A stretch of DNA of 64,000 nucleotides from Candidatus Nomurabacteria bacterium RIFCSPLOWO2_01_FULL_41_18 (GTDB lineage: Bacteria; Patescibacteriota; Minisyncoccia; Phycocordibacterales; UBA9973), in NCBI GenBank assembly GCA_001785865.1, contig MFUZ01000009.1, forward strand, positions 15,309 through 79,308, read 5' to 3'. Numbering within the stretch: the first letter of the stretch is position 1; every line of letters begins with the position of its first letter. Shown here piece by piece: positions 4,350 through 31,817 of the stretch. The notes beneath the pieces were generated by a model. That model saw only the letters and a program-made list of their open reading frames with translations, was not told the origin of the DNA and made no database searches. The translations under genes were made by a program, and so were the position numbers.

Positions 4350-4404
4350 AGAACAACCAAACTCGTTGCAGGTCATTCGACTCTGAGAGTCTCAGACTCG
4401 ATGA

Positions 4405-4495
4405 GCGCACTTTTTGAGAGGCCTTTCGCAGCGCGACGGCGCGAGAAGTTCGCTCCGCGAGCACGCGGAGATAGATTGCCTATCAAAAAGTGTGC
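4405..4495. repeat. Long-stem element with two-hairpin core (same core as pcrA insert)
   Basis: Arms GCGCACTTTTTGAGAGGC / GCCTATCAAAAAGTGTGC enclose CTTTCGCAG..CGACGG..CGAGA..CGCTC..AGCA..GAGA. Confidence 0.75.
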
Positions 4496-4560
4496 CAAGA
4501 AAGAGTTTGGTTACATTTGCAATAATAAAATTAGTTTGCTATTCTTTATTTACAAGTAAA

Positions 4561-4712
4561 TATATCAAGAGTGGCGACGATCCTCCTTCGTAAAACTACG
4601 GACGGAGAGCGAGAATTGGCTTGATGACTCGCCCGGCAACCTAGCTATACGTTTTAGGCAAAGGTGCTAAATCCAACCAAATGCTGATAAGACAGCATGA
4701 GGAGAGATAAGT
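4561..4712 (+). ncRNA. SAM-I (S-box) riboswitch with hairpin insert in P2
   Basis: ATCAAGAG...TTGATGA...CGGCAACC...AAGGTGCTAAATCC...GAGATAAG directly upstream of metK. Confidence 0.85.
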
Positions 4713-4737
4713 ATGCCTAGTCGACATAAAATTCTTT

Positions 4738-10861: not shown

Positions 10862-10945
10862 AAAATTAATATATGAGAAATTTTTGCGGATTTCTCCATC
10901 TGGTGATGGAACCTTCCCCGCCAAAATTTCTCATATTTTAATTTT
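10862..10945. repeat. Long-stem element with TTYCTCC-hairpin-GGAACCTTCC core
   Basis: 28-bp arms around TTTCTCCATCTGGTGATGGAACCTTCC; core recurs twice inside cca. Confidence 0.75.
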
Positions 10946-19894: not shown

Positions 19895-21657
19895 TTATTT
19901 TTTCGTACTCCGTGTTTAGTGTGCAATTTTTCTATTTCTTTTTCTTCAAGTTCTTCTTTTTTTTCTTTTCCTTTATCTCCAAGCGCCTTTAGTTCTTTAT
20001 CATCAAGTTTATCCATAGATTTTACCAACTCTGACAACTTTTCTACAGTATTTTTCTTTGGATCTTCTAAAACTTCTTCCAATAACGCACTTAAAATCCA
20101 CCCCATGCGGGGTCCAGGCTTGATTCCGAGCTTGTGTATCATAAATTCTCCGTTTATTTTTAATTGGCCGACGGAAATAGGGTCTCGCAGTGCCTCTTCT
20201 ATCATGGCAAAATACTTCCGCAGTCGATACGGAGCTTCTTTTTTCTTCATCCCTACCCTATCACATTCCCTTACTTTCATTAAATCCCAAATTGGATGAT
20301 CTTTATTTTCTTTTTTATCCGCCAAAGCTTTAGCGTCGGCGGGGCCAACTTTTGTAATGATTCTACGCACTGCAGAAAGTGTAATTAGCTCCGTATCAGA
20401 GAAAAACATATGATTGCGGACGAGTTTTTCCACAAGATCAGTTTCCTTTTTTGGAAATCTCAGCCTCTCCATTATTTTTTTTGCCATCCGCGCCCCAATA
20501 ACTTCATGGCCGTAAAAAGTGTATTTCTTTTTGCTTCTCGCTGGAAATAAATTCTTTGACATTCCTCCAGTCTCCGACTGGAACCTTCCGTCTGCAGAAT
20601 TTTTTTTCCGCTCCGAAGCAGGTTTAGGGAGATTCTTCACGCGGAAGGTTCCGCCCGAAGGGTGGAGGAAAGCGGAAGAATTTTCCTGAACCTGCGAAAC
20701 ATCTCTGCGACTTTTTGGCTTTCCAATATCGTGGAAAAGCGCAGAAAGCCTTATTTCTAAAGGCCAGTTTTTGTCGGCAGCGTGCTGGAGAGCATGCAAT
20801 AAATGTTCCCAAACATCATAAATGTGCTCCCCTAATTGTTCGCACTTTATCCCCTCCTCTAATTCTGGAATAATATTTTTTAGCAATCCGAATTTTTGCA
20901 GCATCACGATTCCGCTCGCAGGATTTTTCGACAAAATTATTTTTATAAACTCGTCGCGAATTCTTTCCGGAGAAATATTTTTTATCAAGTCCGCATTTTT
21001 AAAAATGCTTTCTGCAGTTTCTGATGAAATAGAAAAATTTAATTGTATCGCAAACCTCACCGCCCGCAACATTCGGAGTGCATCTTCTTTAAAACGATCA
21101 CCTCCTTCCCCTACTGTCCTCAATGTCTTGTCCTTTATGTCCTTTATACCATTAAACATATCTACGAGATGTCCTTTAGAATTTAAAGCGAGGGCGTTGA
21201 CCGTAAAGTCACGTCTTTTAAGATCATCTTCTAGCTTATCACTAAATTTCACCTCATCAGGATGTCTAAAATCGCTATATTTTGCTTCAATTCTATATGG
21301 GGTGACTTCCACAATGGTGGTTGTTTCTCCTACCAACACTGAAGCTTTTGTGGACAAGTGTGAAACACTATCAATTGTGGTTTCACGGGAAACTACCACT
21401 CCCACTGTGCCAAAAGTATTCTCATACACAGTCTTCTTGAAAAGTTTAATGATTTCTTCTGGTTTAGCATTGGTTGTGACATCCCAATCTTTAGGTTCCC
21501 TTCCTCCTTCGGCTCCGCTCAGGATCTGCGACATCATAAGATCTCTTACACATCCACCCACCAAATATGCTTCAAAACCAGCTTGCTCAAGGGCATCTGT
21601 TACATGTGAAACAGTTTTTGGTATTTTTTCTATTAAGTTTTTATATTGACTGTTCAA
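19891..21657 (-). CDS. cca: CCA tRNA nucleotidyltransferase with HD domain
   Basis: VGGCVRD, DWD, RRDFTVNA, EDALRMLR, HDIGK. Confidence 0.95.
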   Translation of the reverse strand: MNSQYKNLIEKIPKTVSHVTDALEQAGFEAYLVGGCVRDLMMSQILSGAEGGREPKDWDVTTNAKPEEIIKLFKKTVYENTFGTVGVVVSRETTIDSVSHLSTKASVLVGETTTIVEVTPYRIEAKYSDFRHPDEVKFSDKLEDDLKRRDFTVNALALNSKGHLVDMFNGIKDIKDKTLRTVGEGGDRFKEDALRMLRAVRFAIQLNFSISSETAESIFKNADLIKNISPERIRDEFIKIILSKNPASGIVMLQKFGLLKNIIPELEEGIKCEQLGEHIYDVWEHLLHALQHAADKNWPLEIRLSALFHDIGKPKSRRDVSQVQENSSAFLHPSGGTFRVKNLPKPASERKKNSADGRFQSETGGMSKNLFPARSKKKYTFYGHEVIGARMAKKIMERLRFPKKETDLVEKLVRNHMFFSDTELITLSAVRRIITKVGPADAKALADKKENKDHPIWDLMKVRECDRVGMKKKEAPYRLRKYFAMIEEALRDPISVGQLKINGEFMIHKLGIKPGPRMGWILSALLEEVLEDPKKNTVEKLSELVKSMDKLDDKELKALGDKGKEKKEELEEKEIEKLHTKHGVRKNN

Positions 21658-29723: not shown

Positions 29724-29750
29724 GAGAAAAGTTTGTGGTATATTTCAAGA

Positions 29751-31817
29751 GTGACTACCGAGGGAGAGCATCTAGAAGGACTAAATAGCGAACAGAGAGA
29801 AGCGGCAATTCATACGAATGGTCCGCTTCTTATCATCGCGGGGGCAGGCGCCGGAAAAACAAAGACGATAACGCACCGGATCGTGAATCTGATAAAAAAT
29901 GGTGTTTTACCGGAGCGGATTTTGGCTGTCACCTTCACCAACAAAGCGGCTAAAGAAATGCGGGAACGGATCATTGCAGAAATCAAAAAAAATACCAATG
30001 GGATTCACGGGCAAGATGGGGTTCCTTTCGTTTCTACATTTCACTCTTTAGGAGTTTACATAATAAAAGAGCATGCGAAGCTGCTCGGACTGACTAGGTA
30101 TTTCACTATCTTGGACGAAGGAGATGCAACCTCACTCATAAAAACAATACTCAAAGATATCGGCATAGACCCAAAACAATACGATCCGAAGAAAATAAAA
30201 AACATTATTTCGAGAGAGAAGGGCAAATTTGTACAGATTGCGAACTATACCGAGAGGGAAGGAGCCAATTCTCTTGCAAAAATAGTGGCACAAGTTTGGA
30301 GCCTGTATGAAAAGCAAAAAATGAAAGAAAACTCACTCGATTTTGATGATTTACTTTTGAAAGCGACAAGATTATTGAAAGAAAATCCTGAAATCAGAAA
30401 AATATATCAAGAAAAATGGGAATACATCCACGTTGATGAGTATCAAGACACAAATGAAGTACAGTATTTAATGTGCCAAATGCTTGCAGATAATAACAAA
30501 AATATTTGTGTCGTGGGGGACGCGGATCAGAACATTTATTCATGGCGCGGGGCAAATTTAAAAAATATCTTGAGTTTTGAGAAAGATTATCCGGATGCAA
30601 AGATAGTTTTATTGGAGCAAAATTACCGATCGACCCAGAATATCCTCGAGGCCGCCAATGTGGTGATCAAGAAAAATAAATTCCGGCCGGACAAGAACCT
30701 CTTCACCAAGAATGAGAAAGGGGAGAAGATCGGATTGTATGAAGCATTGGATGAAAACGATGAGGCAGAATTTGTGGTGACAAAAATTTTAGAAATCCTG
30801 GACGGTAAAGCGAATGTACCTCGGCAGGGTCTCTCGCAGGCCGACGGGCCGAGAGGGAGCGCTCTGTCAGCAGACAGAGACAGCGACCCTGTCGAGGTAA
30901 CATACGCTTTAAAGTCCGAGAATATCTTGTCCGAAGTCGCAGTACTCTACCGCGCCAATTTCCAATCTCGCGCACTGGAAGAAACAATGCTCAAATACAA
31001 CATTCCATATCAAGTTCTTGGGGTTAAATTTTTCGAACGAAAGGAAATAAAAGACACCCTCGCCTATTTGAGAGCAGCTTTGAACAAAGATAGCTTGTCC
31101 GATATTAAAAGGGTCATCAACTTTCCGGCGCGGGGAATCGGCAAAGTCACTTTGCTTAAAATTTTTGCCAACGAGACAGAAACCCTGCCGATAAAAGTGA
31201 AAATAAAGATAAATAATTTTTATCAGACCCTAGAAGATATCAAGGAAAAGATTGCAAGCCTGAAAACCAGTGAAGTAATAAAATTTGTATTGAAAAAGTC
31301 CGGCATAGAAAACGAACTTTCTTCCGGCACAGAGGAAGATGCGGAAAGGCTCGAAAACATAAAAGAGCTTGCGACGCTGGCGCTCAAATACGACAGTCTC
31401 GAAGCCGGCCGGGGGGTAGAAAAGCTTCTCGAAGACGCGTCCCTGGCCTCCGACCAGGACAGCATTATGATCAATGAAAGCCACAAGGAAGAAAAGATAA
31501 ATGGTGTAAAACTCATGACTGTACACGCTGCCAAAGGGCTCGAGTTCAAGTATGTCTTCATCACTGGACTCGAAGACGGCCTTTTTCCTCACGAGCGGCA
31601 CGGCGAAGGGGAGAGCATCGACCATGAAGAAGAACGCCGGCTTTTCTATGTGGCAGTCACTCGCGCCCGGAGCAAACTTTTTCTCTCCTTTGCAAATTTC
31701 CGCACCATCTTTGGATCACGCAATATGAATGCTCCATCAGAATTCATAGCTGATGTGCCCACAGACCTGCTTGAAAAAGAAGGCGAAGATAGTAGAATAA
31801 AAACCATCTATATATGA
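29751..31817 (+). CDS. pcrA: PcrA/UvrD helicase
   Basis: AGAGAGKT, VDEYQD, EERRLFYVAVTRA; GTG 6 nt after TGgTATATT. Confidence 0.96.
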   Translation: MTTEGEHLEGLNSEQREAAIHTNGPLLIIAGAGAGKTKTITHRIVNLIKNGVLPERILAVTFTNKAAKEMRERIIAEIKKNTNGIHGQDGVPFVSTFHSLGVYIIKEHAKLLGLTRYFTILDEGDATSLIKTILKDIGIDPKQYDPKKIKNIISREKGKFVQIANYTEREGANSLAKIVAQVWSLYEKQKMKENSLDFDDLLLKATRLLKENPEIRKIYQEKWEYIHVDEYQDTNEVQYLMCQMLADNNKNICVVGDADQNIYSWRGANLKNILSFEKDYPDAKIVLLEQNYRSTQNILEAANVVIKKNKFRPDKNLFTKNEKGEKIGLYEALDENDEAEFVVTKILEILDGKANVPRQGLSQADGPRGSALSADRDSDPVEVTYALKSENILSEVAVLYRANFQSRALEETMLKYNIPYQVLGVKFFERKEIKDTLAYLRAALNKDSLSDIKRVINFPARGIGKVTLLKIFANETETLPIKVKIKINNFYQTLEDIKEKIASLKTSEVIKFVLKKSGIENELSSGTEEDAERLENIKELATLALKYDSLEAGRGVEKLLEDASLASDQDSIMINESHKEEKINGVKLMTVHAAKGLEFKYVFITGLEDGLFPHERHGEGESIDHEEERRLFYVAVTRARSKLFLSFANFRTIFGSRNMNAPSEFIADVPTDLLEKEGEDSRIKTIYI

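Follow-up and report, generated by a model that had tools for sequence, protein, structure and literature searches.

How do palindromes inside genes stay paired, and how do they move? For coding palindromes such as the Rickettsia palindromic elements (RPEs) this is an open question, and we address it here through an insert in the pcrA gene of Candidatus Nomurabacteria bacterium RIFCSPLOWO2_01_FULL_41_18. The window, that is, the whole stretch of DNA analysed, covers 64,000 nucleotides of contig MFUZ01000009.1, from a 750-kb genome in 9 contigs (G000). The element spans positions 30801–30916, in frame in the open reading frame (ORF) of a UvrD/PcrA helicase. Sequence inspection places the inverted-repeat arms at 30806–30831 and 30885–30911, and four more base pairs form outside them (30800–30803 with 30914–30917). 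Folding of the insert region gives z = −9.1 over 200 shuffles. The features of the locus are listed here, with the basis of each assignment in brackets.

29733–31817, + strand: pcrA/uvrD helicase gene, 694 aa, which hosts the element in frame (ORF, domain search)
30801–30830, + strand: 5′ arm of stem P1, site-specific over its outer ~9 nt and common across sites over the inner ~21 nt (alignment, covariation)
30831–30857, + strand: P2, made of a 5-bp stem, a GCA/GA asymmetric internal loop, a 4-bp stem and a GACG tetraloop (alignment, covariation)
30859–30884, + strand: P3, made of 2 bp, a G/ACA internal loop, a 7-bp variable stem and an AGCA tetraloop (alignment, covariation)
30886–30916, + strand: 3′ arm of P1, with a conserved single bulged base at 30900 (alignment, strand test)
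30914–30928, + strand: 15-nt relic that matches exactly the 3′ end of another hairpin family seen at the same site in G005 (L008) (orthologue comparison)

The long inverted repeat that the preliminary description of this locus had read as encoding extra PcrA residues is present as quoted there, and the gain against outgroups is 37 residues: 67 aa lie between fixed anchors, compared with 30 aa in all seven orthologues from other families, which supply the empty sites that the description had proposed to look for. The 15-nt relic, left by a different hairpin family, accounts for five of the 37 residues. The insert maps to residues 345–350 of Geobacillus stearothermophilus PcrA, where it replaces a short loop. 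In three runs that are not marked as the source (X3, X4 and X6), contigs span one or both insert junctions with 0 differences, so the insert is not an assembly error; no joint bypassing the element occurs among the joints listed for the run contigs. Core-like contigs reach a total depth of ~2800 against ~12 for this organism in run X3, and the family is therefore abundant in these communities.

An alignment of 15 copies supports, for this family of ~115-base repeats, a predicted fold in which P1, ~30 bp long, closes a three-way junction. P2 carries the GCA/GA internal loop and a GACG loop, and P3 a G/AYA loop and mostly an AGCA loop. In this alignment 89.8% of cells are paired, whereas slid controls pair at 38–47%, and both sides change in 39 of 48 pairs; over 85 model-fitted matches 46 of the 48 pairs covary, a count in which the fit leans to the model. 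The GACG loop recurs in 105 of 113 canonical copies, partly forced by the search pattern, and most of the 113 have P3 loops of the form A-x-x-A. A 55-nt core is ~85% identical across unrelated sites, with a slight difference between pairs within a genome (0.865, 29 pairs) and between genomes (0.823, 316 pairs). The cross-site consensus continues ~21 nt outward from the junction, and its span gives a unit of an estimated ~96–99 nt; arms beyond are site-specific, which applies to the outermost ~9 bp of the stem only. We dropped a model that derives the entire outer stem from its target by inverted copying, because the consensus common to sites reaches this far. A 1-nt 3′ bulge lies 14–15 bp from the junction across sites, and tandem G.A pairs close the ~21-bp stem in many intergenic copies. 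Four loci (L191, L349, L352 and L380), with different neighbours, hold a longer four-way-junction variant with a second GCA/GA module.

The window also contains an intergenic twin:

4359–4508, + strand: intergenic twin of a second subfamily, main stem 4405–4495, with a histidine kinase gene on one side and the metK SAM riboswitch on the other (fold, covariance model, annotation)
4373–4404, no strand assigned: unrelated second hairpin nested in the 5′ arm of the twin (comparison with an uninterrupted copy at C6:255392)

The pcrA insert and the twin had been said to share a core (4423–4473 in the twin) with compensated inner stems, and both indeed belong to one family; the twin scores 74.9 bits on a covariance model whose training set included it. 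Its outer stem is common to other intergenic copies in the same genome, placing it in a different subfamily from the pcrA copy. The companion claim, that the outer stems are unrelated yet paired, survives in part: both pair, but their sequence is not free, given the consensus over ~21 nt from the junction and the bulge at 14–15 bp. As a separate observation, the SAM-I riboswitch before metK (4559–4713, + strand; E 0.00018; 28.7 bits, under the gathering score) has a P2–P3 region enlarged by a short palindrome insertion.

A covariance-model scan bears out the expectation that a real family would have further copies. It finds 11 in G000 and matches in 20 of 24 same-genus genomes, at 0–12 per genome with none in four congeners. 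Outside the genus there are matches in 3 of 16 other families and in 3 of 150 phylum genomes, the latter a lower bound since just 23 candidates were scored per genome. An exact 26-nt pattern occurs at more than 121 genome loci and more than 123 metagenome loci, although such scans hold the core fixed and the copies are related, so that counts are not independent. The 80 record titles listed for this pattern are all of Patescibacteria type (Nomurabacteria, Kaiserbacteria, Paceibacterota and the like) or unnamed bacteria, and the one pattern match among viral contigs is not an element. Rfam gives no match at gathering score at the element, and we found no description of this repeat family in the open-access literature.

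Within G000, copies are in frame in pcrA, tgt and mnmA, with a divergent copy in tsaD. Across the family, 68 of the 113 canonical copies lie in open frames at 13 or more sites and encode one peptide per orientation (40 sense and 28 antisense, in a single frame pair); for the other 45, gene breakage was judged from neighbouring ORFs only. One frame pair is stop-free in the coding copies, and the other frames contain stops in about half of them. In the outer stem, third codon positions face one another across the helix, and these vary most (0.54 versus 0.34–0.43), an excess expected under protein selection. Sites recur, with sense and antisense copies in PcrA (14 and 7, including L003, refiled from Def), Tgt (2 and 10), TsaD (5 and 4), IleS (0 and 3) and Fmt (1 and 1), and a second PcrA loop near residue 91 has the same core in five copies. 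The two oppositely oriented Fmt copies have near-identical arms and differ by inversion and compensated synonymous changes. Outer-arm identity is 0.49 within a site and 0.30 between sites, and at one site it is 0.495 for opposite and 0.487 for same orientation. At the TsaD loop, empty alleles have 24–30 aa and filled ones mostly 56 aa; footprints remain in L271 and L269, with one allele (L271) keeping both arms but no core and one the 3′ arm, and three alleles hold other hairpins. With its empty orthologous sites and many further copies, the element thus fits the earlier proposal of a dispersed, structure-defined element tolerated in protein loops.

Other palindromes occupy coding loops in these genomes as well. 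PcrA orthologues L002–L023 carry short in-frame palindrome peptides at other loops (PPAGG, PAGRHG, LRQGSAGQ, PAYASGYGEA). A CCA-adding/HD gene contains, in frame at 20549–20695, a pair of nested copies from another long hairpin family, in a loop that holds the pcrA-element family in relatives L155 and L413. This second family has an intergenic copy at 10862–10945 and further in-frame copies on contigs C2, C3 and C6, and several copies form C-GNA-G triloops on one strand, a DNA-stable motif.

The preliminary description did not include the in-place inversion and replacement by other families that we see at the PcrA site. Among 22 same-genus orthologues with both flanks (L023 being partial), 20 have an insert at this loop: the family forward in 7, the family reverse-complemented in 5 and other hairpin families in 8. 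The remaining two are short, with 31 and 38 aa between anchors. Seven filled copies, both orientations included, measure exactly 62 aa, and relics or tandem copies of earlier occupants persist in G000, G018 and G009. In a quick PcrA tree, sister sequences lie in opposite orientations in three pairs (support 97, 98 and 90). On a FastTree phylogeny of 31 PcrA rows built from the residues outside the insert, 16 changes are required to explain the four states, where shuffled labels average 15.3, and its starred branches force at least 6 changes for the reversed state; the state of the site is no more clustered than shuffled labels. No pair of genomes, the closest being 91% alike in PcrA, showed an insertion freshly made into an otherwise near-identical empty allele.

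Which strand carries the signal can be read from imperfect pairs. A first test that included junction bases was weak (G.T 106 versus A.C 83) and is superseded by junction-anchored tests. In P1 only, over 85 copies, the element strand has 92 G.T against 25 A.C and 109 purine against 21 pyrimidine mismatches, and 49 new metagenome copies repeat the bias (57 against 15, 83 against 11, and a 3′ bulge in 26 against 0), all of these counts being inflated by related copies. In the antisense-in-gene copies among the 113, G.T on the element strand exceeds A.C by 40 to 7 (20 to 3 in the outer stem alone), and in sense copies the outer-stem excess is absent (21 versus 16). Among the 68 coding copies, 55 have the bulge on the 3′ side and none on the 5′ side; at 14–15 bp it appears in just 3 of 45 intergenic copies. 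Energy models favour the same strand in 107 and 108 of the 113 copies, a preference in which DNA and RNA are indistinguishable, with a predicted stability gap between strands of −8.1 kcal/mol for RNA versus −3.7 kcal/mol for DNA. Replication-strand bias is absent (73 versus 87 of 160 copies). Nor are the copies tied to transcription: coding ones lie both sense (40) and antisense (28), and intergenic copies occur in all four gene arrangements, some between divergent genes. Judged from these sequences, only one strand conserves the branched shape. Selection would then act on the fold of one strand whatever the direction of transcription or replication, and therefore single-stranded DNA (ssDNA) probably fits best. 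The suggestion of an ssDNA or RNA element accordingly divides: the strand test favours a folded ssDNA substrate and speaks against an mRNA signal.

A search for the enzyme that might move the family found none: RAYT, GIY-YIG, IS110 and RT genes are not tied to the element. The link to REP/RAYT or Y1 transposases drawn in the preliminary description is not supported, as PF01797 (RAYT) has no match in G000, G012 and G013, among the richest genomes (11, 8 and 12 copies), and none of 25 RAYT loci examined, of ~100 matches, contains a full copy of the element, generic hairpins giving the top score of 21 bits. RAYT-like genes themselves occur in 22 of 24 congeners, and the 25 loci are flanked by their own ~20-bp repeats. 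Those at L117–L141 encode 205–255 aa, each with a distinct ~20-bp palindrome overlapping the stop of the gene, and the RsmA gene of G015 contains one RAYT-flank repeat in frame. For GIY-YIG (PF01541), 0 of 30 loci hold the family and the flanks examined are other repeats; two small GIY-YIG genes in G000 (L312, C6:288985–289264, and C6:307187–307575) lie inside their own inverted or hairpin repeats, in an Ssn-like manner. IS110 (PF02371) gives 0 of 5. An RT was rejected as the mover because the sole RT in G000 is part of a diversity-generating retroelement (DGR) that carries its own TR/VR, and because no RT occurs in the 8-copy genome G012. The DGR (L334, C8:458–4093) comprises the RT, an antisense Avd-like ORF and a 132-nt TR/VR pair at 83%. 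A tyrosine recombinase was likewise set aside, G000 having just a single XerC-like gene, and 67 small neighbour genes are housekeeping or unannotated save one RusA and one NYN, with no mover recognised among them. SbcD and MutS are absent and ComEC is present in 5 of 5 genomes, a permissive background that is not specific to element-rich genomes.

A family with a covarying fold and a strand asymmetry, which reuses sites in both orientations and leaves core-less footprints, is in our reading a putative non-autonomous selfish cassette, copied by a structure-specific ssDNA enzyme encoded elsewhere; we put the probability at about 0.52, barely better than even. The folded strand would present the P2 and P3 loops, and the bulge at its set distance, to the enzyme, and the ~96–99-nt unit would land at hairpins, often the arms of an earlier occupant. 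Either orientation could result because a hairpin target is symmetric, or because arms recombine. In genes, just the frame-keeping form would survive, in tolerant surface loops where it is likely translated; cores would later be lost, replaced or inverted while the site-specific arms remain paired. Without SbcD and MutS, and with ComEC, such copies would persist and pass from allele to allele more readily. We hold only tentatively, and think rather unlikely, a more specific form in which ssDNA cassettes addressed by structure home, flip and displace each other at fixed protein loops by natural transformation in MutS- and SbcCD-free CPR cells, with no neighbouring transposase, while a putative enzyme docks on the GCA/GA-loop junction and measures the ~30-bp stem.

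The cassette reading is weakened by the inheritance of arms per site, for which mobility alone does not select. Site-specific arms that diverge yet stay paired count in favour of a transformation drive or host DNA signal, in which the folded strand aids the survival, loading or integration of incoming ssDNA, or a host DNA process, and copies are kept paired with no dedicated transposase, like uptake sequences. Free orientation, ComEC in 5 of 5 genomes with neither MutS nor SbcD, and the concentration of copies in conserved recombining genes agree with such a signal, and Ssn/NTS hairpin repeats can modulate transformation, according to PMC11893778. A needed host signal, however, should not be freely swapped among families or lost, nor number 0–12 model matches per genome with four of 24 congeners having none, and we regard this explanation as possible but unlikely. 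Template switching during replication, proposed in PMC6649704 for Nematomorpha coding palindromes, could also keep arms complementary and flip them, leaving old neutral insertions with an unrecognised fold; opposite-orientation copies do have site arms in common, and MutS and SbcD are missing. Yet it should remove mismatches with no strand preference, whereas the bulge is 3′ at one distance (55 versus 0), purine mismatches dominate one strand, and the 55-nt core stays ~85% identical at unrelated sites. It may be the route of the flips; as the full explanation it is improbable.

RNA stems typically show an excess of G.U-type wobbles as well as tandem G.A motifs, features that the element shares. 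With the larger strand gap predicted for RNA, they would point to a small structured RNA from the element's own strand, copied back (retro-mobility) or protein-bound. This reading is doubtful: essential genes carry 28 of the 68 coding copies in antisense orientation, divergent genes flank some of the intergenic ones, Rfam has no match, and the RT content of G000 (the DGR alone) and G012 (none) offers little for retro-mobility. Very improbable is removal of the insert from the message, untranslated, by splicing or ribosome bypass. A 30-bp stem would bring the flanks together, but one stop-free frame pair is kept while other frames have stops in about half of copies, for 28 of 68 the message contains the strand that folds less stably, and variation in the outer stem peaks at third codon positions.

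Covariation across hundreds of natural variants, the swap of orientation, which serves as an internal control, and the footprints that lack a core together describe the substrate in enough detail to search for its putative reader protein. The essential enzymes of streamlined genomes accept, flip and swap 30-residue loops, and tolerant insertion points are marked in PcrA, TsaD, Tgt, IleS, Fmt and others.

The preliminary description could not assign the architecture to a named family. The Rfam scan is empty, and the element lacks at least one defining feature each of REP/RAYT, Ssn, MITE and attC. REP/REPIN with RAYT are likewise non-autonomous hairpin repeats read as ssDNA, with nesting and loss from the centre (PMC3733652); however, a GTAG-type foot tag is found in 2 of 140 copies here, and the family is not beside RAYTs. 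Ssn GIY-YIG nucleases read an oriented ssDNA hairpin in trans in competent cells, and small GIY-YIG genes are abundant here, but SRMs are 20–50 nt and flank their own nuclease and NTS are rarely in genes (PMC11893778). Integron attC sites, as PMC7439510 describes them, are one-strand hairpins with free stem sequence and an extrahelical base at a set place, and may lie inside coding sequence. The strand-defining base has its counterpart in the 3′ bulge (55 of 68 coding, 3 of 45 intergenic copies), whereas no conserved R box (RYYYAAC/GTTRRRY) occurs at the stem base; the conserved branched apex contrasts with the variable terminal structure of attC in that source, and cassette arrays are absent. 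Classical MITEs differ in having conserved terminal sequence: the commonest first 3 nt are found in 14 of 140 copies, and outer-arm identity between sites is 0.30. Target-site duplication tests gave, for coding copies, 14 of 86 4-mers versus 7.8 after shuffling, with no common length, and an intergenic excess that is one CGAG motif which also forms the tandem G.A pairs. Nematomorpha mitochondrial coding palindromes also place arms under joint protein and pairing constraint, but in PMC6649704 they are perfect repeats with no inserted core, and long ones avoid the third–third codon register used here. The analogy to RPEs drawn at the outset is supported. RPEs are described in PMC10969869 and PMC3733652 as palindromic repeats of 100–150 bp, each encoding a conserved peptide, that often lie in frame within housekeeping genes unrelated to one another and have no known transposase; the present family is likewise a palindrome of ~100–150 bp in frame in several unrelated genes, with a conserved peptide and empty orthologous sites. 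It is set apart by described features rather than by sequence comparison: the CGTC end tag of RPEs lies near a stem end in just 6 of 140 copies, the family lives in another phylum, its stem is free in sequence and fixed in length, it has a covarying three-way core and a strand-specific bulge, and at one orthologous site it undergoes repeated in-place inversion and exchange with other families.
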